Shown piece after piece: positions 418-58,475 of a stretch of DNA of 64,000 bases. Made by a program: the position numbers and the translations under genes. This DNA comes from an uncultured virus (IMG/VR IMGVR_UViG_3300044986_000368) (Duplodnaviria > Heunggongvirae > Uroviricota > Caudoviricetes), in IMG/VR virus record IMGVR_UViG_3300044986_000368; one strand, 5' to 3'. Every line of letters begins with the position of its first letter. Position 1 is the stretch's first letter. Below the pieces are notes generated by a model, which saw only the letters and a list, made by a program, of their open reading frames with translations, made no database searches and was not told the origin of the DNA.

Positions 418-3400
418 CGTCTCATTGCTCTTTGGAGGGCAAGATCGCGCATGGCGTCTGCCTTGTCTGAGATGTAGTCCTTAGCGCGTTCAGCGGGCAT
501 TTGCAAGGCTCTAGGGCCGTATCGAAGGATCATTTGCTTGTAGAGCTTGCCCGTTTCAAGGCTATAAGCGTCGGCTTCCTCCTGCGTCAAACGGCGGCGG
601 TAGCGTCCTTTGCCCACCATGCGGTATTCGGCATTGGCAGGTGTCAGCCAGATTCCACGGGCGTTCAGGGCACCGAGCATCTGGTATTCAGGCTCGTCCT
701 TGAGCTTGCCAAAATCACGGCTGCCGGGATATGCGTTCTTCTGAATCTTGTTGCCAAGAATATCGTAGTAGTCATTGCCAACGTAGCGGCGGTAAACCGG
801 GATGTGCGATGCGACTTTTTCGTAGAACGTGGTGTAACGGCGCATGTCAGGTGCCGTCATGTAATCAATGTCCTTGAGGAAGCGAGGCATGAATCCGCCA
901 GCCCATCCTGCCAAAACCTGTCCCAAGCGTCCGATGGCCTTTTCAGCCGGGTCTTTGGTGGCGAGGTCGTTGGCGAACAACTGCCCAAGCTGAGCAAGGG
1001 CGGGGATTTCCAGCGAGGATTGCACGCCAGAAACACCAGCGGTGATGACTTGATTGGCGAATCCTTTCGATTTCCATTCATCGGGCGAATAGCGAATCAT
1101 GTCTGAAACGTTGCCTATTGCTGCCAGCAATGCACTAGGAAGCCAGTTCTGGTAGTTGAACACCTTGTCGCCGAATCCAAGGGTGTATTCGCGCTGGCCC
1201 TCAGAGAGCTTCTGCTTCTTCTGTGCAGGAGTAAGGTTATTCCAGCCGCCGTTGATGAACCAACCGCGCTTCTTGTCATCCGGCTCGTCTGAGATAGCCC
1301 TGATAAGTTGAACACCAATGGCTGTCACCACAACGCCCACAATCTGATTGCGCCAAATGGAGTCACGGAAAGCCTGCTGTGCGTTTTCCAGCTTGGCGTT
1401 GTCAGCTTCATAAAGTCGAAGGAGTCCAGCCAGCGGAATAAAGCTCACAGACTGGTTGAACTTGTTGCCTGCAAATCGGGCGAATCGAACACCTGTGATA
1501 TTCGTTCCCTGCTCAGCGATGAAGTTGAGCGTATTCCAGACAACGTAGTTGAGAGCATTCCAAGGGTCTTTTTTCACAGCCCAATCCGCTTCAGCCTGCT
1601 TCAGCCGCTCTTTGGTCGAAGTCATGATGCGCGTGTCGAAGGAACGCACAAGATTGTAGAAGTGCCCGCCAACGCCAGTCGGGTCAAGCGTCATTGCCGA
1701 TTCCGCCGCAAGATAGTCTTGGTTCTCAACCTTGAGTCCTAGCTTGGACAAGTCGGCATACATCTCGGCTTCTGCCAACGAGTTCAAGTAAGCCTTATCG
1801 CGTAGGCTAGTGGGGTAATTGCCACCAAACTCGCTTTTGACGATGCGATCCTTGTAAATCTTGAGGTCGGACTTCAGCGTGATGTCCCGAATCTGCTCAG
1901 GCGTGATGTTGGATTGCAACATGGCGGCGTGCAATGTTCCAGCTTTGGTCACCATCACGTTGAAGCCGTCCAGAGCGGTCAGAAGGCGACTCATGAACTG
2001 CATGAAGCGTCCGAGAACGGCTTTTACAGCATTCGGGTCTTTGGCAATCAAGTCAGCCACAACCTGATAGCGGGCAACCTCTTTGAGCGAGTTCACCTTC
2101 TTGAAGGGGTCGTTAGCACCAGACTCAAGGAATGATATGTCACCCGTCCAAAGATACTGCCAAGCGCGATTCATAGCAGATGGGAAAGACAGCAAATGCC
2201 TCGCGTAATCGCTGAACATTGTAGTGATAGCCTTAACAGCACCAGCCACATCCCCTTTGGCAAAGGCGGTAACCGCCCTCGCCACATGGATGCCCACGAT
2301 ATTGATTCCCGTGGCGTTGAGGAAGGACAAGCCAATCGAGATGATGGTATTCCAGCCAGACAGAACCGATGACACCCAGAAGTTTGCCATCAACTCAGCC
2401 ATCGGAACCTGCGAAGCCGCCTCAAGCTCCATCAGGAACTCGCGTCCCAACTTGTTCCGCTTGGCCTTGTTCAGTGTGTCATCCTGAAGTTGCTCGGCAA
2501 GGTCGCGTAGTTTCGCCTTCTCAGCCTCGGTGAACTTCATCTTAATGCCGAACTTGTCGCCAAGGATGGCAACCAACTCGTCGTTGTCGAAAACGCCAAG
2601 GTTGACTGCTTCAAGGATGCGATTGCGCGAGTCGTTGAGGGCTTTTGCGGCTTTCTTCTTGTCTTGATTTGCAAGCATGTCGCGATTTTTGTCAATCATG
2701 CGATTGATGATCTTCTCGCGTTGACCATTCCAAGATTCGGCAAACAGGTCTGCCAGCTTGGTCTTTTGCGCATCGCTGATGTTCTTGAACACGTCACTGG
2801 AAGCAATGGCGTCAAATACACGTTGGCGGTATGCCTCAACCGTGGACGCACGTTGAGAGAATAACTGAAGCCAAGGAATCGGGGTTTTCAGCGGGATTTC
2901 CTCGCCGAGGCGCATACGGGCAATCTCACGGGCAATTTTGCTCTGAGCTTTCGGGCCTTCAAGGAGGTCGTAAGCAGCCATCGCTTCTTGATCCAGCTTT
3001 TCCCTTGCTGCCGTCTTGAACAAGCGAGAAGCAACATCCTGCGAGACATTCAATTTGGACAGGCGTTTGGCGAAATCCGACTCAGAAACCGGGTCACTGA
3101 CCTGATCGCGGAAAGCCTTGTTGATAGAGTCTCCGTCAGTTGACTTTGTGAGGTCTTTTGAGCCTTGGCGGAAGCGTTCTTCAGTAGCGTAAATCAAGCG
3201 TGATGCCTGCTTGTCGGCAATCTCCACTTTGCGCTTTCCGATCTTAAAGTCCTTCATGCGAACCAAATCGGCGCGTTCTCTGGATGCGGTAAGGAACATG
3301 CGTTCAGCGACTTCCTCGCCAACTTTGAGATTGGCTAGACGTTCAGCAAATTGCTCAAATGACACAGGGTTGCGAACCTGATCCCTGAACGCCTTGATGA

Positions 3401-6400
3401 TGGAGTCCTTTTGCTGCTTCTTCGACATTCCTTCCGGAGGATTCTTGAAGCCTTGGCGATAAAGTTCCTCAAAGCGGTAGATGATTTGAGATGCCTTGTT
3501 TTCAGCAAGCTCAATTTCAGCAGCTTCTTTCTCGGCTGGATCAATCTCCTGACCTTTCTCGGCACGCTTTTTGAGCACATCGGCACCCTTCTTGCGTTTG
3601 GCGCGAGTTGCTTTCTGGGATGGCGTATCAGTAGCCGATTCCTGACCAAGGAGTTTTCTCAGATTGGCCTGAGCTTGAGCTAAGAACTCTGCTTGTTTTT
3701 TGTCAATTTCGTCAAGCGGAATGGAGTCCAATTCATTAAAATCCGCTGCCGACAGAGATGCTTTAGCGGCTGACTTGGCTTGCTGTTTCCTTCTATTGAG
3801 GTAAGCAATCTTGCGAAAGAGGTCTTTGGTTGCCTCCCAAAGAGATTTCGTTTCAGAATCCATTCCCTCCTCCGCTTCACGGAGAAGAGAGGTATTAGAA
3901 TCTTCCTCCTCGGCCTCAGCAGCAGCCGTAGCAGCTTGTTCATCCACCTTCGGAATCTCATTGGACAGATTCGCCTTCACCTGTGGCAGTGAGCCTTCCA
4001 TCGCGTTATTCACGGCCTCGGTGCCGTTATCCTTCATCTTCTTCTCAGCTTGAAGAATGCCGAACGCAAAAGCCGTGCGCGGGTCTTGGTAGATGAGATT
4101 GTTCACATAGAGGTTCTGACCACGCAATGTCGCCCCTTGCTGGAAGAATGCCGCAATCTTGTCATGCAGCTTTTGAGCCTGTGCTCTCTGACTTGGCGTT
4201 CTTGCCTTGTTGATTGCCAGATATACGCGCTGCAAAAGTTGGGCTTCAAGAATGGTCTGCGCAATCGGGCCACCTGTGTCTCTGCCATACAAGCCAAGAG
4301 CGATGCGGAAATCCATGTCGCCTTTGAACTTGTTGAAGATGTCCTCCAGCGTCATGCCATCCTTTTCCAGCTTGGAAAGCAACTCTTGGGCGGCGTTTTG
4401 ATAGGCGTTGAACCACAGCTTGGCGTGCGGGAATGACTCAAAATCCTTGATTGGACGGCCTTCGTAGTCAGCGAAATTGGGCAAGCCTTGCGCTGCTTCC
4501 GTAATATCTGCCTTGAACTGGCTGACAGCCGAGCGTTGCGCTGGCGTTTGAGCGTAGGAGTAACGAATGTCCGGCGAAGTAGTCTGGAACCGCTGGGAAA
4601 GCGGGATCACGTTGCCGGACTCGTCGTAGGTTACGGGGTCGGCGGATTTGATTTGAGACGGATCGAAAACAACAAAAATCGCATCAAGTGGCCCGCCGTC
4701 GAAAGTGTTTTTGATAATGACCGAATCATGCCCATTTTCCAGCGCCTCATCAATTCTGTCGGCATACGATTGTTCGCGGTATTCGTTGCTATTGTCGTCA
4801 AACACCATCGGATTATTCAAGAACAGATAGGCGTTCACCATCTGGCCTTCTGAGGTGTCCAGATAACTGTCAGGCAGTGACGCAGATAGTGCGTCAATAT
4901 CCGCCTTTGCGTCAACTCCAAGAGCCTCTAACGCAGGCGCAAGCTCATCGCGAAGGAATTGCATCCTTGATGAGATTATGTATTCAGGGTCGTCGGAAAT
5001 GCTCCCGTCAAGAAGAGTAGCAATGCTAATGTCGCCCCACTCTGAAACGAATTCGCCAGATCCAAACGGAAGATCGTTAACTTCCTCGACTGAGGTCAAT
5101 TCCACGGCTTCGCGGATCAACGCCTTAATTGCCTTATTGTAATCACGAACCCACTCCTCGCCGCTTTCGGACGCTTCAAATTCTCGGCGAATGTAATAAT
5201 CCTTGCTTGATGCCGTTTCCTTTGAGCCCGCAAAGAAGAATCCTTTCTTAGCCGATTCTGCAAAAGTGTTGCTTCCTAGCTTAGATTTGTCAAAAACGGT
5301 TATCGGCGTTTGAGACTTTGAGCCGTGAAACGCATTGACGACATAACGAACGCCAGTTTGGAAATCAAAGGTCGAGGCATTTTTGATAATCTGATCTCCT
5401 CCAGCCGCCTCATCGACCATCCGCTGCGCCTTCTCCATGTCGCCCGCTTCGACGGCAGCGAGGTATTCAGAATCCTTCTGCGCAACCTCAGAACTTGCAG
5501 CAAGCGAGTAACGCACGCTCACATCCTCGTCCTCAACAGGCTCAAACTCAGAGCCGCTCCAAGTATAGCGTCCAGTGTCCTCAACACGCTTGATGGCGGC
5601 TTCAATGCGTTGCTCAACCTCGGCGATGAATGGCTTCTTCGCGTCTGCCAGCACTTCATCTGATGCCAGCCATTCGTCCAACGCGCTTGTGTCATCTTGT
5701 GCGGCATCAATAATGTCCTGCGGAAGACGCTTGGCGAGTTCGGCATCGACGTTCTCAATCGAGTATTTGCCAGCAGCGCGAAGCTCATTGGCAACCTTGT
5801 CCCATTCCACATCATGCTGCCTGCCTTTGCGAGCAATCTCCACCAACGGCTCCAGCTTTGGATCACGCACGTCAGGTGATGCCAGTTCCCATGCAGCAAG
5901 AACGTCGTTATCCTGAATCGCGCTGTTGTATTCCGATTCCTCAAAACGCCGCTGAACGTCGTCGGGCCAGCTATCGACATCCTCGTTGTCAGCGGTGAAG
6001 CCTTCGATGCGCTGAATCGCATCATCCAGCGTGAGTAGCGCAGGATTGCTGAGAGACTGCATCGCGCCTGTGGGGAGGATGACGATGGAATTTGGCTCAA
6101 ATTGGTCGTTTTGCAGCGCCGCATTGTCCGCGTACATGTCCTGCACGATCTTGTCAAACTCGGCTTGCGTCAGGTTGTCCACAAGCTCGCCAGTCTTGCT
6201 GAAAAGCTCGGAAAGCGGCACAGACGGGCCATTCTGTTTTGGCATCTGCTCGTAGGCTTTGCGCACGCCAAAGAACACTTCAAGCTGACGCGGAGTGTAG
6301 GACGTGGAACGCGCTGCTTGTTGACCTGCCGCGCTGTTTTGGGCGGATTCGGAGGCGTAGCTATACCTTATTCCAGTATCAATACCTCCACCAAACTCAA

Positions 6401-9400
6401 AAGCATCGAAAATAGCTTCAACTTGCTCAATTTCAGAGCGAATCATATCGCCAGATTGGCCGATTTTAACCATCTGCAACGAAGTTCTGAGAGCGTTCAA
6501 AACCTCAGTGAGATATTTCTTCATCGCTTCCACAAAGCGCATCCATCCGGTTTCTGTGGTGAAGTCTTGGCGGTTGAACTGAATCAGTTGACGGCCAATT
6601 TCCATCGTAAAGGCTGGCGCTGTTTGTGATTTGACCAATCTGGCGACAATCTCATTTATATCATAAAGTGGAATGTTGGGGTTGTAAAGATTCCACGCTG
6701 ATACGACGATATTAGCAACTCTTGAATCGCCACGGCTCAATCCATCTGAAGATGCTTGAAGCATGTCAATCAGCATTGAATTGTAATAATTGACCTCAAA
6801 GTCTTCAAAATCCTGTTTTGAATCAGAATCTTTCCATTTTTGGTAGGCATTGAGATGCTGAGCGGTATGGATAACCTCTTCTTGTGACATGTCGTAAATG
6901 CCGGTGAATGCAGTTACAGCGTCAGCGTTTTGCAAATCAGTCAAATTTCTGGTGTCGAATCGCACCTCAATTGCTGGATTAGCTCCCGCAACATATACAC
7001 TAGCAGGTCTACCTTCTCCCGTTCTTTTGTTGGTAATGCGAACAGGAAGTATCGCGGCATCGAAGGAGTAACGCGATAAAATAGATTTAAGTCCAAATTC
7101 TTCCAGGGCTTTCGCCCTCTCAGTTGCCGAAAGCGCATTCCAATTTGTTTTTGAAACGCCTTCTCGAATTGCAGCCTCTCTTGCAGAGTCGTCTGCTCTC
7201 GAAATTGACGCCATGCCGATGCCACCATCTCGCGTGGCGATTCCTGTTTGAACAAATGGCTTGTATCCATAAATCAGTATTTGATCCCCACCCACCGTCA
7301 CATCAGGACGTGCCTTGTGAGCGTTCTTGAGAGCACCGCGAAGCAGACGAACAACGTCCTTCATGCTGGACAGCGTAGGCTCGCCCTTTGGCTTGCCCGT
7401 CCACTTGCGCCAGATTTCCTTGATGTAGTCCCAGAATTGCTTCCAGACGCCATCTGTGGGGATGGTTTTCGTCTCCTCGATATACTTTTGCAGGCGTTCA
7501 TCGAGAAGAGCGACCTCATGCGCCGGGTTCGTCCTCCAGTCGGCGTATTGCTTGTAAACCTTCGCAAGCTCATCAAGCTCCTCTGCCGGGAACATCTCGC
7601 GCAGGAATCGCATGATTTGCGCCTGCTGCTTGGCAGGAAGAAGCCAGAAGCCTTTGTGCATGTTTTCGTGCGTCAAAACACGCTTTGCTGCGGCAACAGC
7701 AGGTGTCACGCCATCTTCCTTGGCTTTTGCGCGGTCAAGATCGGTGACAACCACGCGGTCTGTGAAGATGAACGACATGCCGTTCTCGAACACGCCTTCG
7801 ACATTCTCAGCCTCGGCAGCAGCCACAGCACCGGGGAATTGCGCCTGATACTTGGCACGCTCACGACGCATATCCGCAGAAGTTCCACGCCATGTGAACA
7901 CGGCACTTGGCACCTCTCCTGAGTTTTGCAGTTCGCCGATTGCCTGCTCAACATCCGCAGACTTGACCTGATTTCTGACAGGATTCGTGCGTTTTGGGCT
8001 AAACAGGTTGGAAATGGACTGAGCGTTTTGCTTCTGCTGCTCCTGCTCAAGCTCGCGTTCTGCCCGCTCAAAGGCGTTGGCCTCCTTTTGCGCCTTGGGA
8101 GACGGAATAAATCCCTGAGCCAGCGCATCAGTCGCAGCCTTCCTTTTGGCGTTCTTTGCCTGCCTGCTATCTGTAGGCTTGATGGCAACACTTGGGTCTT
8201 CAAAGAAATCGCTCTGAACGAAGTCGTTGAACTCCTGATCGCTCAAACTCTTCAAGAACTTGTCCAAATCGTCCACCATCGTCCTGCCGCCAGCGTTGAG
8301 AATCTGCTCAACACGGCGATTGACCAAAGCCGGGGTCTTGGCTTCTAAGGATTTTTCTGTTGACTTTACGGTTTCTTCGGCGGAGACTTTAGGAACCGTG
8401 GGAATCGACCCTTCCACGGGCTGAAGCTCAGCACTGGCTACCGCCTCTCCCTTAGCCGAGGGAGGGGCGGTTTCGTTTGTGGCTACCGTTGTGGTTTGGG
8501 GAGATGGATATGCGGCGTCGAGAAAATCCTTGAATGCCTTTTGAGATGCTTTGAGTCCAGCCGGAAGGGCTTTGCCGGTCCACTCCTTCCAAACTTTGCG
8601 AGAAATTTTATTGTCGGGATGAAGCAGATCGGTCCACTGCTTATTTTGTATGGCAGACATCAATGCCTCGCCGTTCTTTGCGGCTACTTCAGGGCGAATA
8701 TCTTCACCTTCGTAAATTTGGGCAAACCTTTCGGCCTTGGGTGCCCAGTTTGGTTTTACGCCTCGTGCTTGCTCAAGCTCTTGCCTTGCGACATCTAACC
8801 GAGTGGGCGCTGCCTGAACTGGTTCGCCAGTTGCCCCCGGTTGAAAGATGTAGAGTTCACCCTGCTTGATGTAGCCTTCTGGAAGTCTAATGCCGTAGGT
8901 GTCAACGGCTTCGGCAGACACCGGCTTCCTATCTTCAAGAGCCGACTGGATATTAGATGCGTGTTGTTTTTGTGCTTTTTTGTCAGTTATTTTAGACAAA
9001 GCAACCTGTCTCTCTTGGTATATCTCAGCGGCATAGGGATAGGCAGCCATGTACGCGTCTGACGCCCCAAACTCTGCTTGGTACTTTCTTTTTATTTCTG
9101 AAATCGGGGTAGAGGCCCATTCTTTTGCCTGTTTTGCTATGCTCGTTAATTCCTCCGGCGTCATCTGCTCCGGCTTAGTCGCATCCCGCTCACTGCCAAC
9201 GCCTCGCAACATGACCTTGCCTTCGGTAGCGGGCGTCGGCGTCCCTTGCGGGGTGATTGGTTGCGCGAATGCAAATGTTTCACCTTGGCGCACATAACCC
9301 ATGTCAGTTGCCATCTTAACCAAGTCATGCTTTTCCAAGGTTTTAGCGACCATGAACGGCTCACGATCTTCTAATTGAGCAACGGTGAAACCCTTATTTT

Positions 9401-11843
9401 GTTTGCGAAGTTCCGCAAAGGCATCAGCCTTGGCTTTAGTCGCTTTTGCCTCTGCTTGTTTCCACTGCATGAAAGATTGCTCTTTAGCATCAGCCTCTTT
9501 TTTACCCTTGCTGGCATTGATCGAATAGTATCGTTCTTTCAGCTTATCAGCTTTTTCAGCGAGTTCATCTACTTGAAATTGAGCGCGAATATCGGCGGCA
9601 AACTTTTGGGCGTTTGGCCCTATGATGTAGCCTCCGCCGCTCCCAGTGCGTGCAAGATTACCCCCAAGCTGCCGGGGTGTCTCGGTAACTTGAGACTGAC
9701 TGCTGATGCCTGAAAGTGCCTCAGGTTGCTGTTGAAGTTCGCCTCCTGTTCCTCTCTCGTCAGGGGTGGTAGTCCGAACCTCGCCCGTTGCGCGTCGTAT
9801 TCCTTTCGCCTCGCTTCCGCCTTGGCTTTGAGCAAAGCCTTTTTCGAGGTCTGGTCTTGCAAGCTGCATGTCTTGGATGGCTGCTCGCACGCTTGAGAAC
9901 ACTTCATTGATTTTGGCGTTTTCATTGTATTCGTAATCACCCCATTGATTTTTGGGTGTTTTGTTGAGATTATCTTTATCTTTCTGTGCGTTTTGGAGCT
10001 TGCCTTGCAGATAGGCTCGGCGTTTTAACCAATCTGGTTCGGGCAGTTTTTCCAAATCTGGAACTGAAATTGCCGCGTAGGGCTTCATTAAATTGGTGCC
10101 AACTACTTCTTTTTGGCTTGGCGCTGGACTGAGTAGCTGATCGCTAAGGCTTGCTTCAGCGGTTTCCCGGCCTTCAACTCCGTCTTGAGGTTCTTGGAGA
10201 AGGCTTTCTTCGTCGGGGATTTCGATAAGGACATCTTCGGGTGGTGTTGTGGGTTGCGCTGGAATGACGGATTCAAGTCCGGCAGAAACTTCAGGGGGCA
10301 GTTGACCGCGCATTTTCGCAGCGGCGTCAGCAATGATGGCGCGATTGCGTTCAGCGCCTTCGGAAAGGGGAATTGCGCCAGCCTGTGTTGGCGCTGGCAT
10401 TTCAACTACCGCAGGCGCTTCAGCCGCTTGCTCAGGCTGAATTGGCGGCTGAGCGGTTTGCGCTTGAATTGCTTGAAGGTTTTTGGTGATTTGTTCGTTT
10501 GCATTGAGAACTTCTTCTGCGGTTGCGCCTGAAATTTCTGTGCCGGGAACTCCTTTTGTGGCATTAAGATTTGCTCTTGCAACCGGAGTCTCAGGCGGAG
10601 GCGGCATTGAAGGCTCTTCTGCGGGGGCGGCGGGAGTTGTTGGCGCGGCAGCAGTTTCAGTTGCAACTGCTTCGGGAGTCGGAAGCATAAGCTCCTTCGT
10701 TCCGGCAATAGTCTTTGAGGCAAGTGCGCTCGGAAGAGACAAGCCAACATCACCAAGCATCTCCATGTATGCCTCGGTTGGGTTGATTTCCTGCCCCATG
10801 GCATATTGAGCACCAATTTCACCCGCTCCCGCCGATCCTGTTTCAATCGCAGCGCCACCCAATATTCGTGCCACATTGCCTGATGGCGTGAATTGTTGTT
10901 TCGCAGCCGTGGCAGCACTTTTGACAGCCGCATTCAACGCCGGATTGAGCAATGCCGCGTCAACCGCCTCCTTGGAGGCAATATCAACACCAGCGTTGAC
11001 TAGCGTTTTTTGAGCAGCGCGAGCGGCGGCACGCTCTGGAATTGTCATCAATGCGCCAGCGCCCTTCAATCCAAGCCCTTCGACAGCGCCAATAACTGTT
11101 CCGCGAATAGCCCCGGCTTTCAAACCCTCAGACATAATGTCGGGGTTCTGTTTCAGATATGCAGAAATCTCATCCGCCGTCATGTTGGCGGCAGCGCCAT
11201 TTGTTCTTTCGTTGAGGATGTCGTAAATCGCTGGCCCTGCCTCCATTAAGGTATTGGAGATGGCACCGCCAGCGGTGGCTCCAGCAATACCCGTGAGAAT
11301 TGCACCAGGGCCAGTTTCAAGTCCAGCGCCAGCACCAAGAGCACCACCAATGGCATATCCAGCAAGTCCTGTTGCTCCGCTAATCAACGCATTGGGGGCA
11401 GACTGAACTGCCTGTTTGAAGGCAGCTCCCGGATGTCTTGCTGTCGTTCCCAAATATCCCCCAAGAGCTTCAATGGTTTCGAGTGGCCCGCGAGCCTGTT
11501 TGTAAGCCTCCTCGCTTTCCTTAAACTCCTGCATCAAAGCCACATCTTCCGCCGTGCGAGATGCTTCCTGCTCTTTTTGCAGAGCGCCCATTTGAGCAAG
11601 ATATTGAGCGGCATCTTGTTCGTCACCGGTCAGAGCATTGAAAGTCGTGCCAACACCCGATGCCATCTGCCTGAAGCCAACATCAAGAGCACCGCCCAAC
11701 TGAGACAGATAACCGGGCTCTTGACCGCGTGGAATTGCTGGTTTGGGGGTGAAAAATGGAGCCAATTCTTCAGGCGTTGGCTGTCTGTCAGCCTCAACCT
11801 GAAACCTTCTTCCATCCTTGAGTTCGACAAGATATTTGGGCAT
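414..11843 (-). CDS. Giant (3809 aa) polyvalent internal virion/ejection protein with ART-PolyVal-like ADP-ribosyltransferase and HExxH metallopeptidase-like domains
   Basis: Last of a run of virion genes; Ala/Gly-rich N-terminus; FHGS..FDKSK.GSN..GFFF..YL.LNNP..GHDSVII..VVFDPSQIKSADP motif; LTHENMHKG; repeated RYS linkers; helical C-terminus. Confidence 0.8.
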   Translation of the reverse strand: MPKYLVELKDGRRFQVEADRQPTPEELAPFFTPKPAIPRGQEPGYLSQLGGALDVGFRQMASGVGTTFNALTGDEQDAAQYLAQMGALQKEQEASRTAEDVALMQEFKESEEAYKQARGPLETIEALGGYLGTTARHPGAAFKQAVQSAPNALISGATGLAGYAIGGALGAGAGLETGPGAILTGIAGATAGGAISNTLMEAGPAIYDILNERTNGAAANMTADEISAYLKQNPDIMSEGLKAGAIRGTVIGAVEGLGLKGAGALMTIPERAAARAAQKTLVNAGVDIASKEAVDAALLNPALNAAVKSAATAAKQQFTPSGNVARILGGAAIETGSAGAGEIGAQYAMGQEINPTEAYMEMLGDVGLSLPSALASKTIAGTKELMLPTPEAVATETAAAPTTPAAPAEEPSMPPPPETPVARANLNATKGVPGTEISGATAEEVLNANEQITKNLQAIQAQTAQPPIQPEQAAEAPAVVEMPAPTQAGAIPLSEGAERNRAIIADAAAKMRGQLPPEVSAGLESVIPAQPTTPPEDVLIEIPDEESLLQEPQDGVEGRETAEASLSDQLLSPAPSQKEVVGTNLMKPYAAISVPDLEKLPEPDWLKRRAYLQGKLQNAQKDKDNLNKTPKNQWGDYEYNENAKINEVFSSVRAAIQDMQLARPDLEKGFAQSQGGSEAKGIRRATGEVRTTTPDERGTGGELQQQPEALSGISSQSQVTETPRQLGGNLARTGSGGGYIIGPNAQKFAADIRAQFQVDELAEKADKLKERYYSINASKGKKEADAKEQSFMQWKQAEAKATKAKADAFAELRKQNKGFTVAQLEDREPFMVAKTLEKHDLVKMATDMGYVRQGETFAFAQPITPQGTPTPATEGKVMLRGVGSERDATKPEQMTPEELTSIAKQAKEWASTPISEIKRKYQAEFGASDAYMAAYPYAAEIYQERQVALSKITDKKAQKQHASNIQSALEDRKPVSAEAVDTYGIRLPEGYIKQGELYIFQPGATGEPVQAAPTRLDVARQELEQARGVKPNWAPKAERFAQIYEGEDIRPEVAAKNGEALMSAIQNKQWTDLLHPDNKISRKVWKEWTGKALPAGLKASQKAFKDFLDAAYPSPQTTTVATNETAPPSAKGEAVASAELQPVEGSIPTVPKVSAEETVKSTEKSLEAKTPALVNRRVEQILNAGGRTMVDDLDKFLKSLSDQEFNDFVQSDFFEDPSVAIKPTDSRQAKNAKRKAATDALAQGFIPSPKAQKEANAFERAERELEQEQQKQNAQSISNLFSPKRTNPVRNQVKSADVEQAIGELQNSGEVPSAVFTWRGTSADMRRERAKYQAQFPGAVAAAEAENVEGVFENGMSFIFTDRVVVTDLDRAKAKEDGVTPAVAAAKRVLTHENMHKGFWLLPAKQQAQIMRFLREMFPAEELDELAKVYKQYADWRTNPAHEVALLDERLQKYIEETKTIPTDGVWKQFWDYIKEIWRKWTGKPKGEPTLSSMKDVVRLLRGALKNAHKARPDVTVGGDQILIYGYKPFVQTGIATRDGGIGMASISRADDSAREAAIREGVSKTNWNALSATERAKALEEFGLKSILSRYSFDAAILPVRITNKRTGEGRPASVYVAGANPAIEVRFDTRNLTDLQNADAVTAFTGIYDMSQEEVIHTAQHLNAYQKWKDSDSKQDFEDFEVNYYNSMLIDMLQASSDGLSRGDSRVANIVVSAWNLYNPNIPLYDINEIVARLVKSQTAPAFTMEIGRQLIQFNRQDFTTETGWMRFVEAMKKYLTEVLNALRTSLQMVKIGQSGDMIRSEIEQVEAIFDAFEFGGGIDTGIRYSYASESAQNSAAGQQAARSTSYTPRQLEVFFGVRKAYEQMPKQNGPSVPLSELFSKTGELVDNLTQAEFDKIVQDMYADNAALQNDQFEPNSIVILPTGAMQSLSNPALLTLDDAIQRIEGFTADNEDVDSWPDDVQRRFEESEYNSAIQDNDVLAAWELASPDVRDPKLEPLVEIARKGRQHDVEWDKVANELRAAGKYSIENVDAELAKRLPQDIIDAAQDDTSALDEWLASDEVLADAKKPFIAEVEQRIEAAIKRVEDTGRYTWSGSEFEPVEDEDVSVRYSLAASSEVAQKDSEYLAAVEAGDMEKAQRMVDEAAGGDQIIKNASTFDFQTGVRYVVNAFHGSKSQTPITVFDKSKLGSNTFAESAKKGFFFAGSKETASSKDYYIRREFEASESGEEWVRDYNKAIKALIREAVELTSVEEVNDLPFGSGEFVSEWGDISIATLLDGSISDDPEYIISSRMQFLRDELAPALEALGVDAKADIDALSASLPDSYLDTSEGQMVNAYLFLNNPMVFDDNSNEYREQSYADRIDEALENGHDSVIIKNTFDGGPLDAIFVVFDPSQIKSADPVTYDESGNVIPLSQRFQTTSPDIRYSYAQTPAQRSAVSQFKADITEAAQGLPNFADYEGRPIKDFESFPHAKLWFNAYQNAAQELLSKLEKDGMTLEDIFNKFKGDMDFRIALGLYGRDTGGPIAQTILEAQLLQRVYLAINKARTPSQRAQAQKLHDKIAAFFQQGATLRGQNLYVNNLIYQDPRTAFAFGILQAEKKMKDNGTEAVNNAMEGSLPQVKANLSNEIPKVDEQAATAAAEAEEEDSNTSLLREAEEGMDSETKSLWEATKDLFRKIAYLNRRKQQAKSAAKASLSAADFNELDSIPLDEIDKKQAEFLAQAQANLRKLLGQESATDTPSQKATRAKRKKGADVLKKRAEKGQEIDPAEKEAAEIELAENKASQIIYRFEELYRQGFKNPPEGMSKKQQKDSIIKAFRDQVRNPVSFEQFAERLANLKVGEEVAERMFLTASRERADLVRMKDFKIGKRKVEIADKQASRLIYATEERFRQGSKDLTKSTDGDSINKAFRDQVSDPVSESDFAKRLSKLNVSQDVASRLFKTAAREKLDQEAMAAYDLLEGPKAQSKIAREIARMRLGEEIPLKTPIPWLQLFSQRASTVEAYRQRVFDAIASSDVFKNISDAQKTKLADLFAESWNGQREKIINRMIDKNRDMLANQDKKKAAKALNDSRNRILEAVNLGVFDNDELVAILGDKFGIKMKFTEAEKAKLRDLAEQLQDDTLNKAKRNKLGREFLMELEAASQVPMAELMANFWVSSVLSGWNTIISIGLSFLNATGINIVGIHVARAVTAFAKGDVAGAVKAITTMFSDYARHLLSFPSAMNRAWQYLWTGDISFLESGANDPFKKVNSLKEVARYQVVADLIAKDPNAVKAVLGRFMQFMSRLLTALDGFNVMVTKAGTLHAAMLQSNITPEQIRDITLKSDLKIYKDRIVKSEFGGNYPTSLRDKAYLNSLAEAEMYADLSKLGLKVENQDYLAAESAMTLDPTGVGGHFYNLVRSFDTRIMTSTKERLKQAEADWAVKKDPWNALNYVVWNTLNFIAEQGTNITGVRFARFAGNKFNQSVSFIPLAGLLRLYEADNAKLENAQQAFRDSIWRNQIVGVVVTAIGVQLIRAISDEPDDKKRGWFINGGWNNLTPAQKKQKLSEGQREYTLGFGDKVFNYQNWLPSALLAAIGNVSDMIRYSPDEWKSKGFANQVITAGVSGVQSSLEIPALAQLGQLFANDLATKDPAEKAIGRLGQVLAGWAGGFMPRFLKDIDYMTAPDMRRYTTFYEKVASHIPVYRRYVGNDYYDILGNKIQKNAYPGSRDFGKLKDEPEYQMLGALNARGIWLTPANAEYRMVGKGRYRRRLTQEEADAYSLETGKLYKQMILRYGPRALQMPAERAKDYISDKADAMRDLALQRAMRR

Positions 11844-14980: not shown

Positions 14981-15946
14981 TTATCGAGTTTGAGGAGTGG
15001 AACCTGCCGACTGCGGGAACCAAAACGGCATCGTAGGCCGAATCGCGCCACGATTTTGCTTAAGTCCCTGATTGAGAATCTGATAGCACTTCTGCCAACG
15101 TTGCTCGGCGGCGGCTTCTTCATACGCACCGTCATTTTCCAGCTTCACGGCGATCAATGCGTGCTTCAAAGCGCCAAGGTTGTCAGGCCAAACAAGGTCG
15201 GTTTCAGCCACGGCAGGGACGTAGCGACGTTTGCACAGGCAGCGCAGCCAGGGCTTGCCGTCGCTCCGGCTTGTCATCGTGCCAGTCTTGTAGCGGCGGT
15301 AAATTGGGTTCGTCTCGCTTGGCTCGTAAACGGAAAGCTCAACGGGAGTGCCGCTCACAACCACGTTCAGCGTCACGGAACCAAGGGTCGCAGGCTTAAC
15401 GATCTGCGTTATGGTCATGGACGTTGCACCCGTCACCGTGGTATTTGCCAGCGTAAGGGCCAAACCAGCGTTGCCAGACGAGTCAAAAACCTCGTCTCCG
15501 TTCGTGTCGTAACCGTAAACGCGCACGATTTTACCTGCGTCAGCGGCGTTGGCGATGACAAGCTGCGGCAGTCCAGCATCGGTCTGAAACTCCATCGTGC
15601 AGCAGTCGCCTTGGTCAATGATCGTGCGAAGGTTCTCATCCATTGCCTCGTCATCGAAATACCCCGGCCCCGAAGTCATGAACTCAACCATTCTCGGATA
15701 TACGCCAGTGGGATAGTTCACGCGGGTAACTCCGATGATTGATTCCCAGCGTCTAGGAAGCGTGATGTAGCCTGTCGAAGTCTGGAAATCTACCTGACCA
15801 TAGGTGTTTTTCCACGCGCCAGAATTTATGATCCGCTCGCAGGCTTGGTTCAAATACGGCAAAAACAACGTCGAGTTAACGTCGTTGGGATCAACTTGCG
15901 TGTATAGCGCAGCACGGGCGGCGGCAACTGTTAGACCTGTGGGCAT
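14981..15946 (-). CDS. Putative head-tail adaptor / tail tubular-like protein
   Basis: YLNQACERII...YITLPRRWESI N-terminus and helical C-terminus typical of podoviral adaptor proteins; first gene of the operon. Confidence 0.55.
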   Translation of the reverse strand: MPTGLTVAAARAALYTQVDPNDVNSTLFLPYLNQACERIINSGAWKNTYGQVDFQTSTGYITLPRRWESIIGVTRVNYPTGVYPRMVEFMTSGPGYFDDEAMDENLRTIIDQGDCCTMEFQTDAGLPQLVIANAADAGKIVRVYGYDTNGDEVFDSSGNAGLALTLANTTVTGATSMTITQIVKPATLGSVTLNVVVSGTPVELSVYEPSETNPIYRRYKTGTMTSRSDGKPWLRCLCKRRYVPAVAETDLVWPDNLGALKHALIAVKLENDGAYEEAAAEQRWQKCYQILNQGLKQNRGAIRPTMPFWFPQSAGSTPQTR

Positions 15947-16000
15947 TGCCCGATTCTAATCCGTGCGGCATTTCTGGCAATAGGTAATTTTCATATTTGA

Positions 16001-16065
16001 GCCGAACTTCCGCTGGAGCCGACAGACTCGCTTTGGCTCGCTTGCGGCTCAGCTATTGGTTAGCT
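16001..16065 (+). mobile_element. attC-like site A (65 bp)
   Basis: R'' GCCGAAC, L'' GCTG(G)AGCCG(A)C, L' GCGGCTCAGC, R' GTTAGCT; two extrahelical bases in the left arm. Confidence 0.85.
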
Positions 16066-16329
16066 GAAATAAGTTTGCAGCCAATTCCCACACGGAAGCG
16101 GATACCAAATGTAGCCGTAAAAAGAATTGTCGCCACTTTGATGTTGCTCGACGTATACCTCTCCGAATTGCAAGTCTGGTTGCGCCTCGCCTTCGGGGGT
16201 GTCCACGATTCCTTGCAGCCCCCAAAGAGAGGTGTCCGAATTGTGCGCGATGAGTTGTCGCAAAAAATCAGCTAACAAGGTGGTCGAGGCGACCGCCACC
16301 GGCTCCGTAGTAGGTTTGGGATCGTTCAT
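16060..16329 (-). CDS. Cassette gene 1, hypothetical 89 aa
   Basis: Start lies in the loop of attC B; TAA stop lies inside the R' box of attC A. Confidence 0.75.
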   Translation of the reverse strand: MNDPKPTTEPVAVASTTLLADFLRQLIAHNSDTSLWGLQGIVDTPEGEAQPDLQFGEVYVEQHQSGDNSFYGYIWYPLPCGNWLQTYFS

Positions 16330-16384
16330 AGTCTAGGAATGGGTTGGGGTTGCGGGTAGCGTCGCCTCACCTTCGGCGTTCGCC
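16270..16384 (+). mobile_element. attC-like site B (115 bp)
   Basis: AGCTAAC-AAGGT-GGT(C)GAGGCGAC(C)GCCACC...GGTAGCGTCGCCTCACC-TTCGGC-GTTCGCC. Confidence 0.85.
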
Positions 16385-16731
16385 TCCAAGTCCTCGATCT
16401 TGCGCTTGGCCCTTTGGAGCCGCGTGTAGAGTTCACCAGCGCACCACCACTGCACTTGGTCAGTCGTGGTCATGTCGATGATTGTGCCATCGTAGTCTTG
16501 GCCGTGGCTCTCGCCATCTGTGCCCGCGCGGAAGCTCATTTCTTCCTCGCCGTATTCGATTTTGACGATGTAGTCGCCCGTCTGGTCTAGGTGCCATTCA
16601 ACGAGATCGACGCCATCGGTAATGCCGATAGTTTCGACTATCTCTTCCAGCCATTCGGGAGGACAACCCGGCTCTGCTACCAACCTCTGGGGCTGGTCTT
16701 GGGTCATTGTTAGTGTGCTTGCTTCGGTCAT
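16333..16731 (-). CDS. Cassette gene 2, hypothetical ~132 aa (MTEAST.../MTQDQ...)
   Basis: Acidic ORF; ATG 1 nt after the MTase stop, inside the attC C loop; the 213-aa call in the ORF track overextends into the MTase. Confidence 0.7.
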   Translation of the reverse strand: MTEASTLTMTQDQPQRLVAEPGCPPEWLEEIVETIGITDGVDLVEWHLDQTGDYIVKIEYGEEEMSFRAGTDGESHGQDYDGTIIDMTTTDQVQWWCAGELYTRLQRAKRKIEDLEANAEGEATLPATPTHS

Positions 16732-16796
16732 GTTATTGGGCCTTTGTCGTGTTGTCCTGGTCGTGCCCCAGGGTTGGCAGAGATTGAGCGTTGGGC
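16661..16796 (+). mobile_element. attC-like site C (136 bp)
   Basis: GGACAAC-CCGGC-TCT(G)CTACCAACC(T)CTGGGGC...GCCCCAGGGTTGGCAGAGA-TTGAGC-GTTGGGC. Confidence 0.75.
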
Positions 16797-17509
16797 AGAA
16801 ACAAATCACCCTGCGCGAGTTCGCGCTGGATGCGTTCGAGTGCCGTGGCATAGTGCGTCGGGTCTTTCTCGATGCCGATGAATCGGCGTCCAGACCGCAC
16901 GGCGGCGACTCCAGTGGTTCCGCTCCCCATATACGGATCAAGCACCGTTGCGCCATCGGCGAGCTTTGCTGCATCCATGCACCATTGCATCAGGATCACG
17001 GGTTTCTGGGTCGGATGCTGCGACTTCTCGCCGCCTTCGCTTCCGCGATACGCTCCGCTCCATAGGTGCCGGAATGCGCGGGGTTTAGTTCCCTTCTTGT
17101 GCCATGCGTATTCGCCTTCGGCAATTCGCACCTTGAGCGCGTTTTGCGTCACCTTGTCCCAGAAATACCATTGCCCGATTCTTGGCGGGATTGCGTGGCA
17201 GTAGTTGTTCACTCCCCAAAGGATCACGTCCGGGTATTCCATCAGATGCGACGGGTCGAAGATTTCATCGTCGCCGATCACCATGCCGAAGCGTTGGATT
17301 CCTTTCTGGGTGCTTTTGCTTGGATCATAGGCGATCCCATACGGCGGATCAGTGATGCACGCATCGACCTGCCCGAGAGTTGGCAGCACTTCCATGCAGT
17401 CCCCGAGATACAACGTCACCCGGCCACACGAAGAGGCATAACAAGCGCATAGAGCCAACGCCGTTTGGCGTTGGTCCTGTATGCGTGAGTCTGTGGCGGC
17501 GTGGCTCAT
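16733..17509 (-). CDS. Cassette gene 3: beta-class N6A/N4C DNA methyltransferase
   Basis: LYLGDC, TDPPYG, HPTQKP and LDPYMGSGTTG motifs. Confidence 0.92.
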   Translation of the reverse strand: MSHAATDSRIQDQRQTALALCACYASSCGRVTLYLGDCMEVLPTLGQVDACITDPPYGIAYDPSKSTQKGIQRFGMVIGDDEIFDPSHLMEYPDVILWGVNNYCHAIPPRIGQWYFWDKVTQNALKVRIAEGEYAWHKKGTKPRAFRHLWSGAYRGSEGGEKSQHPTQKPVILMQWCMDAAKLADGATVLDPYMGSGTTGVAAVRSGRRFIGIEKDPTHYATALERIQRELAQGDLFLPNAQSLPTLGHDQDNTTKAQ

Positions 17510-17523
17510 GCTAGTCGTTCGCC
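17436..17523 (+). mobile_element. attC-like site D (88 bp)
   Basis: GCATAAC-AAGC-GCAT(A)GAGCCA(A)CGCCG...CGGCGTGGCTCATGC-TAGTC-GTTCGCC; the MTase ATG lies in L'. Confidence 0.88.
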
Positions 17524-17524
17524 T

Positions 17525-17881
17525 TCACGCTGCGCAGTCGAGCATGTCCACAATATCATGTTCCACCATGTGGAGCGCACCGATGGCCTGATATGCGGTC
17601 ACGTCCGACTCCTGACCGTAGCGGCGGATTACGCTCCGCAGTTCTCGCCTGAGCATCGCGCCAGCATCTCCGCTGGCTCCGTCTCCCCACTCTTGCTCCC
17701 ATGCTCTCATGGTAGCGGCAGCAAGTCCGTGCTCACCATCCAGCTTTGAGCAGCGGTGTCCCTTGAGACGGTGCCTCACATCCTCGCAGACTGGACAAAC
17801 ATAGCCCAAAAGGCGAACAAAACGGTGCATCCAAGTCCTCGTGGCTTGGACTGCTGTGTCAGTGGTTTCTAGGGTGCTCAT
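17525..17881 (-). CDS. Cassette gene 4, hypothetical 118 aa with CxxC
   Basis: MSTLETTDTA...CPVC...; start lies within the attC E loop. Confidence 0.7.
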   Translation of the reverse strand: MSTLETTDTAVQATRTWMHRFVRLLGYVCPVCEDVRHRLKGHRCSKLDGEHGLAAATMRAWEQEWGDGASGDAGAMLRRELRSVIRRYGQESDVTAYQAIGALHMVEHDIVDMLDCAA

Positions 17882-17935
17882 TGGTCTTCTTGGGTTGTGG
17901 GCTTCGTTTCGGACTGGCTGACCTCCGCGTTCTGG
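17812..17935 (+). mobile_element. attC-like site E (124 bp)
   Basis: GGCGAAC-AAAAC-GGT(G)CATCCA(A)GTCC...GGACTGGCTGACC-TCCGC-GTTCTGG. Confidence 0.8.
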
Positions 17936-17951
17936 CCTGTTTATAAGTTCA

Positions 17952-17980
17952 ATCTTACGCCAATTATCCCTCAGAATCAA
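17952..17980 (-). promoter_or_regulatory. Sigma70-type promoter directed into the cassette array
   Basis: TTGATT-17 nt-TAAGAT with the genome-wide GCGTAAG motif. Confidence 0.65.
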
Positions 17981-19349
17981 CCTCTTTTCGCAAAACCTCA
18001 AACCTGAAGTGCTTGCCGACAAGCTCCATGTCCACGGTGCGGTAGCGTTCACCGTCACGAACCTTGTGGAAGAACATCTGGCGCTGGAAATTGGGCTTCT
18101 CCTCTTCTTTGCCCTTTTTCCATGAGGGGCCGTCGTTCTTGACGCCAATCTTCTTGATCTTGATGAGGTTGTCGGCGTCCTGCTCAATGGCGCGGGATTC
18201 ACGCACCTCGCCATCGTTGTTCACCTGCGAAGGCATGATGATGTGTGCCCCCGTCATCTTGGCGCACTGCTTGGTGGTAGCCGTGATGTGAGCAACCTCG
18301 CGTTCTCGATTTTGAGAATTTTCGGTAGTCTTGCATAGCTGGATGTAGTCAATCATCGCAACAAGCCTTTTGCCAGCGTTCAATTTACGCGACCTGCGTG
18401 AAATATCGCGGCAGATTTGCTCAATCGTCTTTCCAGCCACATCCACGATGCTGAAGTCCCATTTCGCCGCCTTGTTTGCCACAAGGCCAAGGTTGAGCAT
18501 TTCATTGCGCGTCAGCATCCCCGTTTTGAGGTTTTTGGCGTCAATCTTGCCCTGAGAGCACAAAATGCGCTTCACTTCCGCCTTGGGCATCATTTCGTAG
18601 GTGTAGTCAACGGCGCAACCACCCTCGATAGCCACCCATTCGAGCATTTGTCGGCACAAACTGGACTTGCCATCACTGGACTCAGCCGCCACAACCGTCA
18701 GGCATCCGGGTTCAAGACCGCCCATGATGTCATCAAATTCGGCGATACCAGTCGAAACCCCGGTGATTTTCCGCCCCGACTTCGCCATATCCTCGGCGTC
18801 CTGCAAGACCTCGTTAATGAGTTCCGCCATCGGGCGATGCTCCAAATCAGGGCTGCCATCGTCATTTGCAGCCTCCACAACGCTTTTAATGACGTTCTGG
18901 AGGGTATCGGCAGCGGAAGAACCCTCCGACTCGTTAAAACGCAAAAGAACGTCCATTCCAGCGGCAAGAACGCCAATCATGGCCCTAAGCTGGTATTTCT
19001 GCCGCACAATCCCGGCGTAGTAGCCGAAATGCGACACCATCGGGATGTTCGAGTAGAAGACACTGAGCCTCGCCGGGCCTCCCATGTTGTCGAGAAGCCC
19101 TTTTTCACGGAGATTGATTGTCACGGAAGGCAGATCAATCGGCCTTCCAGCGTTGAAAAGCTCCAAGAAAGCCTCGATCAGCCAGCGGTGATGGACGTGG
19201 AAGAATGAATCCACGGGCGGGCACTCCTCAATCAGCCTTGGGTGGTGGAAAATCGAGGAAACAACCGTCTGTTCAGCCTCCTCAGACCACGGAAGCTGGG
19301 CGTCTTTGAAGGACGCTAGAAGCTGTTCGATTGTGGGAGGAGGTGTCAT
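17964..19349 (-). CDS. dnaB: DnaB-like replicative helicase
   Basis: EAEQTVV N-domain, TGVSTGI..FD..MGGL.PG, AAESSDGKS, IDYIQL, SQVN, RESRAIEQDAD. Confidence 0.92.
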   Translation of the reverse strand: MTPPPTIEQLLASFKDAQLPWSEEAEQTVVSSIFHHPRLIEECPPVDSFFHVHHRWLIEAFLELFNAGRPIDLPSVTINLREKGLLDNMGGPARLSVFYSNIPMVSHFGYYAGIVRQKYQLRAMIGVLAAGMDVLLRFNESEGSSAADTLQNVIKSVVEAANDDGSPDLEHRPMAELINEVLQDAEDMAKSGRKITGVSTGIAEFDDIMGGLEPGCLTVVAAESSDGKSSLCRQMLEWVAIEGGCAVDYTYEMMPKAEVKRILCSQGKIDAKNLKTGMLTRNEMLNLGLVANKAAKWDFSIVDVAGKTIEQICRDISRRSRKLNAGKRLVAMIDYIQLCKTTENSQNREREVAHITATTKQCAKMTGAHIIMPSQVNNDGEVRESRAIEQDADNLIKIKKIGVKNDGPSWKKGKEEEKPNFQRQMFFHKVRDGERYRTVDMELVGKHFRFEVLRKEVDSEG

Positions 19350-21595: not shown

Positions 21596-22387
21596 TTAGT
21601 AATTTTCAGCTTCCTCTCGCGTGATGAAAAAGTGAATACCTGAAGCACACTCATCTTGCCAGTCTTCAGAAAACGGCTTTTTGGGCCTGACGATTTCGCC
21701 TTTTTTGTATTCAAAGGCTGGATCGTGCGAGGAAAAACCCACATCCACTTCGTTGTCACCATCATAAATTGCCACAACAATAGCCTCAGAGCATCGACAC
21801 TTGCGACCAAAAGCATTAGAGCGTTTTGCGGATTCAGGAATGCGCAATTTTGCAATACTTCCATTTTGCAGCTTCTTCCAACCAATAATTTCCCCGTCTG
21901 GAAGAATGCGTGTTTGTGCAATGATTAATGTTGCGTATTTGGCACCGTGAAGATCAGCATCGCAAAGGTCAGCATCGCGAAGATCAGCACCGTGAAGGTT
22001 AGCACCGCAAAGATCAGCACCGCGAAGGTTAGCACCGCAAAGGTCAGCATCGCGAAGATCAGCATCGCGAAGGTTAGCATCGCGAAGGTCAGCACCGTGA
22101 AGGTTAGCATCGCGAAGGTCAGCATCGCGAAGATCAGCATCGCGAAGGTTAGCACAGCCAAGATCAGCATCGCAAAGATCAGCACCGCGAAGGTTAGCAC
22201 CGCAAAGGTCAGCATCGCGAAGATCAGCATCGCGAAGGTTAGCATCGCGAAGGTCAGCACCGTGAAGGTTAGCGACGCGAAGGTTAGTTTTTGATTTGAT
22301 GGCCGTCGCAACTGCCTCATAAATAGAAGCGTAGTCGCCCTCATGTATCACACTGCCTGTAAACCTGTTCTTAATTTGTGTTTTCAT
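21596..22387 (-). CDS. Pentapeptide-repeat protein with DUF5758-like C-terminus
   Basis: Tandem A(D/N)Lxx repeats; GWKK...LRIP...KCRCSEA...CASGIHFF. Confidence 0.92.
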   Translation of the reverse strand: MKTQIKNRFTGSVIHEGDYASIYEAVATAIKSKTNLRVANLHGADLRDANLRDADLRDADLCGANLRGADLCDADLGCANLRDADLRDADLRDANLHGADLRDANLRDADLRDADLCGANLRGADLCGANLHGADLRDADLCDADLHGAKYATLIIAQTRILPDGEIIGWKKLQNGSIAKLRIPESAKRSNAFGRKCRCSEAIVVAIYDGDNEVDVGFSSHDPAFEYKKGEIVRPKKPFSEDWQDECASGIHFFITREEAENY

Positions 22388-36598: not shown

Positions 36599-37501
36599 AT
36601 GATGGGCGATGCTTTCCTTCACATGAACCACCCCGACAATCTCCAGCAAATTGCAGACGACTCTTTCCTTGCGCTTCCAAAAGGAATTGGCTCTCTCGAA
36701 TCAGATCCATCTGATTACCCTTATTGGGACAATGAAGCCCCTCACAGGCTGGCGATTGCCAAGCATATTCTGGATGCTGTTGGCAAGAAATCTGAGTCCA
36801 CACCAAAGAATGAGTTCAAACTTCCAACTCCGCCACCGGGCATGAAGTGGCACCGCGAAGACGGATGGACGGCTGACATGCTGCCATCTGGAACAAGACC
36901 TCTGTATTTGGGGGAGACCATTAACGTATGTGATTCCACTTTCAGTCAAGACAGAGCAAACGATTATTTCTTTCGCACCACCCGCCCCCTGACCTTCACT
37001 TACGAAGGCCACGAATGGACATGGCACCGTCCGGGCGATCCAATGCCGTGCGATGGGGAGCGCGAGGTATGGGTGATCGGAGAAGATCACCGTGTCTGCC
37101 ACCACGCTTGCCACCGTCCTTCCAAGGCAAAAACGTGGGTGTGGAAAAATACCACAAAACCCTACATCATCGGATGGCGCTACGCTGATGAGTCTCCAAA
37201 AGAAACCATACCAACCTCCATCTCTGACACCGCCAAGTCCATCGTTGCTGGAGACAGGGCCAAAGACTACGGTGACGCATCAGAATCGTTTGCCCGCATT
37301 GCCGCCCTGTGGAGCGCGTGGAAGGGTGTCGAGTTCACCTCTTGGGATGTAGCCATGATGATGATCCTCCTCAAAGTCAGCCGCGCAAAGACCAGCAAGA
37401 AGCAGGACACGCTGATTGACATCATCGGGTATGCGGAATGCGCGGAGAAGGTTGGAGGGAGCGTCTCGGATCAGACACCGCGAACCCAAGACCATGAATA
37501 A
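36599..37501 (+). CDS. Multidomain protein with C-terminal DUF6378-like domain; its tail is encoded by attC F
   Basis: GDRAKDYGD..ESFARIAALWS..DVAMMMILLKVSR..DTLIDIIGYA. Confidence 0.75.
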   Translation: MMGDAFLHMNHPDNLQQIADDSFLALPKGIGSLESDPSDYPYWDNEAPHRLAIAKHILDAVGKKSESTPKNEFKLPTPPPGMKWHREDGWTADMLPSGTRPLYLGETINVCDSTFSQDRANDYFFRTTRPLTFTYEGHEWTWHRPGDPMPCDGEREVWVIGEDHRVCHHACHRPSKAKTWVWKNTTKPYIIGWRYADESPKETIPTSISDTAKSIVAGDRAKDYGDASESFARIAALWSAWKGVEFTSWDVAMMMILLKVSRAKTSKKQDTLIDIIGYAECAEKVGGSVSDQTPRTQDHE

Positions 37502-37548
37502 CACGACCAGCGCACCAGAGCGGTTGTCCTGCATCCGATTTGTTCGGC
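37456..37548 (-). mobile_element. attC-like site F (R' degenerate, GCT)
   Basis: Minus strand GCCGAAC-AAATC-GGAT(G)CAG(G)ACA(A)CCGC...GCGGTGTCTGATCC-GAGAC-GCTCCCT. Confidence 0.75.
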
Positions 37549-37877
37549 TTTCGGTGCTTGATTTCATTGCGGTCATTCGTCGTTCGCGCCAAGACAGCGA
37601 GCGATTCTTTATGCGCGGCGGGTGCTGGGAAATGTTCTGCCTTCTGCGTAATGTCTGGCCAGAGGCTCAACCTTACCACTCATGGACTGACGACGTGACT
37701 CTTGGTGTTGGGCAACATGTGGCGACGAAAATAGGAGATCATCTTTACGACATTCGAGGGCGCATCCGCAGGCCGTCATTGTATCAGCCCATGACGCTGA
37801 CATCGTGGCCGTCACTGCGTGGCGGTGATCGTCCGCATCGTTGGGCAAAGCACTACCGCAGTGAGCCGAACCAATAG
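37494..37877 (+). CDS. Cassette gene 5: putative papain/transglutaminase-fold protein
   Basis: GGCWEM..L...HVATKI...YDIRG (Cys-His-Asp); start in the attC F loop, stop in attC G. Confidence 0.65.
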   Translation: MNNTTSAPERLSCIRFVRLSVLDFIAVIRRSRQDSERFFMRGGCWEMFCLLRNVWPEAQPYHSWTDDVTLGVGQHVATKIGDHLYDIRGRIRRPSLYQPMTLTSWPSLRGGDRPHRWAKHYRSEPNQ

Positions 37878-37916
37878 CTCACCGACGCGAAGCGTTCGGT
37901 GCAGCGCAAGTTCTAC
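37865..37916 (-). mobile_element. attC-like site G (52 bp)
   Basis: Minus strand GTAGAAC-TTGC-GCT(G)CACCGA(A)CGC-TTC-GCGTCGGTGAGC-TATTG-GTTCGGC. Confidence 0.82.
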
Positions 37917-58437: not shown

Positions 58438-58446
58438 GAGAAGCCA

Positions 58447-58475
58447 ACCTTACGCTTATTACAACTCAGAGTCAA
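58447..58475 (-). promoter_or_regulatory. Sigma70 promoter (a near-identical one lies at 58772-58800)
   Basis: TTGACT-17-TAAGGT with GTTGTAA.AAGCG spacer in both. Confidence 0.7.

Follow-up and report, generated by a model that had tools for sequence, protein, structure and literature searches.

The 64,000-nucleotide stretch of viral DNA analysed here (the window) carries an array of mobile, reverse-polarity gene cassettes that are gained, lost and replaced at G|TT. The window is a circular phage genome with a 68-nt terminal repeat that codes for terminase, DnaB, a replication initiator and a resolvase, and its closest record (G001) is identical to it across 15500-18500. Under the 4-kb rule found in the available text of Cury et al. 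2016 (PMC4889954), the array is a CALIN: at least two attC sites lie on one strand inside 4 kb, and the surroundings encode no integron integrase; the genome is not a complete integron, as it lacks intI and its first site is attC-like. A tyrosine recombinase (PF00589) had no match among the 47 + 134 = 181 ORFs of the window, which cover all 176 frames of at least 100 codons, and was also absent from the complete relative G002. An Rfam search of the window gave no match. We consider it likely that this is the live array of an integrase-less phage, which uses a cassette pool common to phages and an IntI supplied in trans. The features are collected in Table 1.

Table 1. Features of the two cassette arrays and their surroundings (CM, covariance model)
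Feature	Position	Strand	Description
Site A	16001..16065	+	65-nt attC-like dock at the attI position, without own cassette body; CM 19.6 bits
Cassette A-B	16060..16378	-	319 bp; 89-aa ORF 16329 to 16060; ATG within site B
attC B	16270..16384	+	CM 44.4 bits; loop contains the B-C stop codon, with the A-B start 3 nt beyond
Cassette B-C	16379..16790	-	412 bp; 132-aa ORF 16731 to 16333; C-terminal tail coded by neighbouring attC
attC C	16661..16796	+	CM 24.4 bits; loop holds the methyltransferase stop and the start of gene B-C
Cassette C-D	16791..17517	-	727 bp; DNA methyltransferase (N6_N4_Mtase), 258 aa, 17509 to 16733; PF01555 E 7e-20
attC D	17436..17523	+	CM 50.9 bits; L' arm contains the methyltransferase ATG
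Cassette D-E	17518..17929	-	412 bp; 118-aa ORF 17881 to 17525; R'' of E fits the cassette's first bases 9/9
attC E	17812..17935	+	CM 26.4 bits; array end adjoining dnaB
DnaB-like helicase	17964..19349	-	PF03796 and PF00772; array on the same strand, 83 nt past the dnaB stop
Second array	37456..37871	+	One reversed cassette; YunG-like ORF 37494-37877, PF24591
attC G	37456-37548	-	CM 25.1 bits; R' is GCT, not GTT, in the window and G002
Site F, short dock	37865..37916	-	CM 24.4 bits; overlaps the stop codon of the terminase large subunit (phrog_2)

The five palindromic + strand sites described in an earlier note on this DNA are real, and all five have AAC, a 5-nt spacer, L'', L', a 6-nt spacer and GTT, together with unpaired (extrahelical) bases in the L'' arm. 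The four outer R-box bases are often off RYYY/RRRY, likewise in the chromosomal attC set. The earlier note had suggested a covariance-model check. Our model was built from 36 attC sites adjoining chromosomal IntI genes in Verrucomicrobia-class genomes, none of them from the window genome; 93% of cells in its training set pair in the named structure, the sites having been chosen for that shape. On the + strand all five sites match (19.6-50.9 bits, E 8e-11 to 6.5e-3), and beyond these and two sites on the - strand the highest remaining match in the 64 kb scores 11.9 bits. An earlier heuristic site scan had overlooked site E and placed a chance site ahead of A.

The mutual complementarity of the cassette ends is as had been claimed (A/B 9/9, D/E 9/9, B/C 8/10, C/D 5/7), and the G.T wobbles in B and C do fall on the bottom strand. 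On circularising, the R''/R' boxes of the four window cassettes would close at 7, 5, 5 and 7 of 7 positions; cassette C-D closes at just 5/7, yet it is the cassette shown below to be mobile. The proposed bottom-strand folding is weakly supported: at minimum energy the R boxes pair in B, C and E but not in A and D, where forcing them to pair costs 2.4 and 5.1 kcal/mol, respectively. The predicted fold energies of the top and bottom strands are near-equal (0.15-0.9 kcal/mol apart for sites A-E).

All four array ORFs lie on the attC bottom strand, as the earlier note had it, and each has its start codon within its own attC; the ATG falls at offset 60/115 in B, 71/136 in C, 74/88 in D and 70/124 in E. 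Thus none of the window cassettes (0/4) shows the canonical arrangement, in which the ORF lies on the top strand and ends before the attC. In B, C and E the start codon is in a predicted unpaired loop (P 0.59-0.75; for D, P 0.11), so these hairpins may have a second role. Genes also finish inside sites, the methyltransferase stop falling within C and that of gene B-C within B. Among homologues of protein B-C, the conserved part finishes at E[AVE]N in 31/37, the Asn codon straddling the crossover, and those 31 bear 29 different tails. The ORF of cassette A-B had no match in Pfam or PHROG, and cassette D-E is present in 3/3 close relatives compared.

Comparison with related phages, also proposed in the earlier note, revealed that near-identical genomes drop or swap whole cassettes precisely at G|TT. 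The 727-bp methyltransferase cassette C-D is missing exactly in G002 and G003, which have 99% identity around the array, and a contig from run X9 has the same 727-bp skip, with 4 letters at the junction that fit either side. In G002 cassette A-B is replaced by two other cassettes, site A being the same and the change running from G|TT. The window and G002 differ at six cassette boundaries; five of these are at G|TT, and the sixth, which closes the second array on its far side, is at G|CT. In this second array, at the terminase, G002 retains site F, which is followed there, from G|TT, by three other cassettes instead of the window's one. Run X1 may itself be the source of the window and is not independent; there, 16377-16792 forms a separate 416-nt contig at a depth of 101.5 (flanks 64-76), with other neighbours at both ends. 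Furthermore, the four variable bases of R'' fit the cassette's own first bases at 3.7/4 vs 1.8/4 for its present neighbours (p 4e-7; 35 phage cassettes, a few occurring twice), which is the footprint expected of circular intermediates. A search for excised circles found no backward joint in the contigs of four runs, contigs being a form of data that drops rare forms.

Site A is attC-like, as claimed, but proved to be a conserved dock rather than an ordinary cassette attC, its 5' side being bare of any cassette body. Its 20-letter motif recurs in 20 viral loci, some of them near-copies, and in the 21 dock sites the DNA beyond G| takes 18 different forms. When 19 dock loci were scanned, 12 had more sites on that strand, in every case 3' of the dock (with, in a single one of these, another site 2.6 kb away on the 5' side), and 7 had none. 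One extra cassette lies exactly at the dock in the comparisons L124 vs L123 and L139 vs L137. From these sequences we infer that the dock stands in for attI. Of six distant relatives of the gene left of site A, none is directly preceded by an array. Across 401 host-phylum genomes the dock motif was found with one mismatch in 3 (vs 6 control matches), and the one inspected was no dock. No IntI was found in five dock-bearing records (0/5, all incomplete); the dock-bearing G006 has a weak tyrosine-recombinase match, below cut-off.

We then found the same cassettes in phages that encode an integrase. A motif search of viral contigs returned 10 loci, two of which (L037 and L041) have an integrase beside an array containing cassette B-C. 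L037 belongs to G007, a complete 39.4-kb phage that codes for a major head protein, an endolysin and DnaB. Its integrase passes TIGR02249 (354 bits vs a cut-off of 265), aligns to VchIntIA through the IntI-specific insertion (2a3v, E 1.6e-65) and has motifs that give R133, K158, H264, R267, H290 and Y299, which we take to be the catalytic tyrosine-recombinase residues. Judged by its sequence, G007 encodes a true IntI and has both an attI and an array of reversed cassettes. Cassette B-C (412 bp) occurs at 99% identity and with exact ends in the IntI-bearing G007, G008 and L050. Compared with the whole of G007, the window has in common a 416-nt block (16377-16792, 99%), one 66% block and nothing else; since the likeness is confined to these blocks, a single cassette has moved between unrelated phages. 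In addition, a cassette of G002 is the first cassette of G007 (542 nt, 100% identity). G007 also has a second cluster (L065:11635-12934) of three attC-like sites far from the integrase, the middle one short, and the IntI of G008 (L066 / G008:C1:15436-16028) is broken into two frames although its array is identical to that of G007; the break could reflect decay toward an integrase-less state or an assembly error.

The attI of these phages behaves as an entry point. One attI flank is followed, after G|TT, by four different first cassettes (L048, L049, L050 and L051), whose stop codon the attI supplies. The cassette genes point toward attI, so a Pc located there could presumably not express them. 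As a separate observation, the phage attI (L049, L054-L061, L073) has a GATAAT/TATAAT-like hexamer 4-5 nt before the crossover, which could be an L box or an antisense -10 element.

Relatives of the G007 IntI are found in 16 viral loci at 63-100% identity. Among IntI protein clusters at E 1e-100 or better, the best 120 of 158 are 64-99% identical, and none of these 120 is on a contig >44.2 kb. A close G007-type copy occurs in 1/401 host-phylum genomes; this one, L073, has a reversed array, lies in a Verrucomicrobiaceae bin, and may be a prophage or a mis-binned phage. In the array of L073 (G012 contig 15) the same cassettes occur two times over, as replicative movement of cassettes would be expected to produce. 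A tree of 55 integrases has a 100/100 branch between the 10 proteins of phage type and the 45 chromosomal ones, a separation that is partly built in because the phage-type group was gathered by likeness to one query.

The orientation of cassettes differs between the two kinds of array. We called polarity by a crude rule that compares the longest ORF starting in a site and running back through R'' with the longest ORF ending at R''. Beside chromosomal IntI genes (44 loci searched, many without sites), 29 sites were forward, 4 reversed and 9 uncalled (n=42 unique heuristic sites), whereas beside phage-type IntI genes 5 were forward, 19 reversed and 4 uncalled (n=28 sites, 13 loci); for this contrast Fisher p is 3.6e-7, with a few chance sites in both sets. 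Further viral covariance-model matches, leaving out docks and IntI-array sites, were also mostly reversed (40 reversed, 13 forward and 5 uncalled, n=58). The phage-IntI arrays have cassette DNA in common with integrase-less phage loci, and that DNA had no match in 45 chromosomal integron loci, a small sample. Single forward genes of host type seemingly sit amid reversed ones in two viral arrays (L036:2395-2524 and L072:10911-10982).

The earlier note held that the phage borrows a host IntI to gain, lose and shuffle genes. Gain and loss are borne out by the relatives, but no re-ordering of the same cassettes inside one array was seen among those compared, and the enzyme need not be the host's, because a phage with IntI and attI carries cassette B-C at 99% and a G002 cassette at 100%. 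We propose that an IntI acting in trans would cut at G|TT and excise cassettes between two attC bottom strands, through circular intermediates, and that new cassettes would enter mainly at the dock (site A), in the place of attI. Owing to their reversed polarity, incoming genes would be appended to the 3' end of the dnaB operon and read from the phage's upstream promoter; each would bring its own start in the attC loop, and a gene lacking its own stop codon would take one, together with a variable C-terminal tail, from the neighbouring site. The IntI would most likely come, at least in part, from co-infecting or resident helper phages of the same host, which is probably a member of the Verrucomicrobia, to judge from the class of the attC sites and from the closest relatives of the IntI. 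There is a good chance that the IntI of a helper phage contributes, and we regard it as at least as likely a source as the IntI of the host.

Cassettes common to phages at 99-100% have 0 matches in the 45 chromosomal loci (again a small sample), chromosomal arrays run forward (29 vs 4 reversed, n=42), and the dock motif in the host phylum (3/401 genomes with one mismatch) does not exceed its 6 control matches, all of which makes it rather unlikely that the working enzyme for this same array is a host chromosomal IntI, with phage IntI genes merely another reservoir. Such enzymes would nevertheless be at hand and could do the whole work: IntI above cut-off is found in 75/251 genomes of the class of G012, the likely host class; host and phage attC sites belong to one structural class, and a model trained on the former finds the latter; and, according to the available text of Qi et al. 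2023 (PMC9892861), IntI1 recombined 5/6 phage attC sites. Very improbable, in our view, is that the array is a fossil whose blocks were captured by homologous or illegitimate recombination from an integron phage, its hairpins now serving as linkers or translation-start elements. A fossil would suit a genome without an integrase, sites A and D that fold poorly into the recombinogenic form, and start codons of B, C and E in predicted unpaired loops, but the breakpoints largely refute it, as only 4 letters fit either side at the 727-bp loss junction, 6/6 of the boundaries that differ, from two loci, coincide with the crossover base, and near-identical genomes differ by single cassettes, not blocks.

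Beyond the live, trans-acted array that we favour, these data may reflect an integron system of the phages' own, distinct from that of their hosts, a broader proposal whose chances we judge to be even. It would comprise an IntI lineage confined to phages, together with its attI; reversed cassettes, held in a common pool, in which the attC serves as gene start and tail; and integrase-less, dock-bearing clients that borrow a helper's enzyme in co-infection. Polarity would be a firewall; if this is true, cassettes from hosts, which are often anti-phage, would not be expressed in a phage array, nor would those from phages be expressed behind a host Pc.

Integrons are stores of anti-phage genes, and the system proposed here, if true, would be their phage-side counterpart. 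It would provide a site-specific mechanism for part of phage mosaicism, in which small accessory genes (methyltransferases and others) come and go after the replication genes. The basic integron design rule, by which strand choice secures expression from Pc, is reversed here, and natural attC sites are read as protein. A single named enzyme, together with an attI, a dock and a cassette found in both kinds of phage, makes the mechanism testable.

The phage CALINs published by Qi et al. 2023 (PMC9892861, in the portion available) are integrase-less attC clusters of virulent phages in which cassettes for DNA methyltransferases are frequent, and the window array, an integrase-less phage attC cluster with a methyltransferase cassette, resembles them. 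One example from that portion, ctTUS972 (MW202573), has attC sites on the - strand and annotated genes on the + strand and is thus reversed too, whereas another, TJE1, is forward, unlike the window array. P12002L gave no match with our own covariance model. As far as its accessible text goes, PMC9892861 does not remark on gene-versus-attC polarity and puts oddities down to general mosaicism; nor do those pages report cassette-level differences between relatives, a dock or phage-to-phage cassette transfer, and the complete integrons they describe are pieces of host type, carried by Vibrio, E. coli P1 and Shewanella phages. Virus Rctr41k (KX853513, L151 4680-10101), absent from those of its tables that were available, codes for an IntI-like protein (44% to P0038), and its six attC-like sites, all forward, share the strand of the integrase.

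Classical integrons, as covered by the available parts of Cury et al. 2016 (PMC4889954) and Bouvier et al. 2009 (PMC2727003), have the attC anatomy and the G|TT crossover point found here, the bottom strand being the one exchanged there and, by our proposal, here too, and the helper phages are like them in the IntI-specific insertion, in having intI opposite the attC top strand and in the adjoining attI. In the same parts of these papers, classical cassettes are mostly transcribed opposite to intI, the strand choice securing expression from Pc; here, by contrast, the genes lie on the bottom strand, pointing toward intI or the dock, with the ATG inside attC, and new cassettes arrive at the far end of a phage operon. 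The inverted-integrase integrons of the Treponema group, as presented in the sections of PMC4889954 at hand, also have intI and cassette genes co-directional, but there it is intI that lies on the attC strand, as it does in virus Rctr41k, whereas here the inversion affects the genes and leaves intI where it normally lies. Synthetic attC sites placed in coding sequence (Nivina et al. 2020, PMC7439510, available in part) are likewise read as protein, though engineered; unlike that design as far as the available text gives it, the natural attC here codes for the N-terminus of its own gene and the C-terminal tail of its neighbour. The literature searched, which left most subscription papers outside, described no reversed phage cassettes, phage-specific IntI lineage or dock. 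What is new here is the presence of cassette B-C in an unrelated phage with IntI and attI, the conserved dock and the reversed phage-IntI arrays.

Finally, we note other genes of the window genome. A 3809-aa protein (414-11843, - strand) has a weak ART-PolyVal match (E 2e-6, below cut-off), and its conservation in G002 is limited to patches. The pentapeptide-repeat protein at 21596-22387 differs in repeat number between G002 and G003 and the window. Small phage genes code for a ferritin-like protein (47901-48305), a PAS-fold protein (53010-53540) and an RNA polymerase alpha-CTD-like protein (58111-58449).
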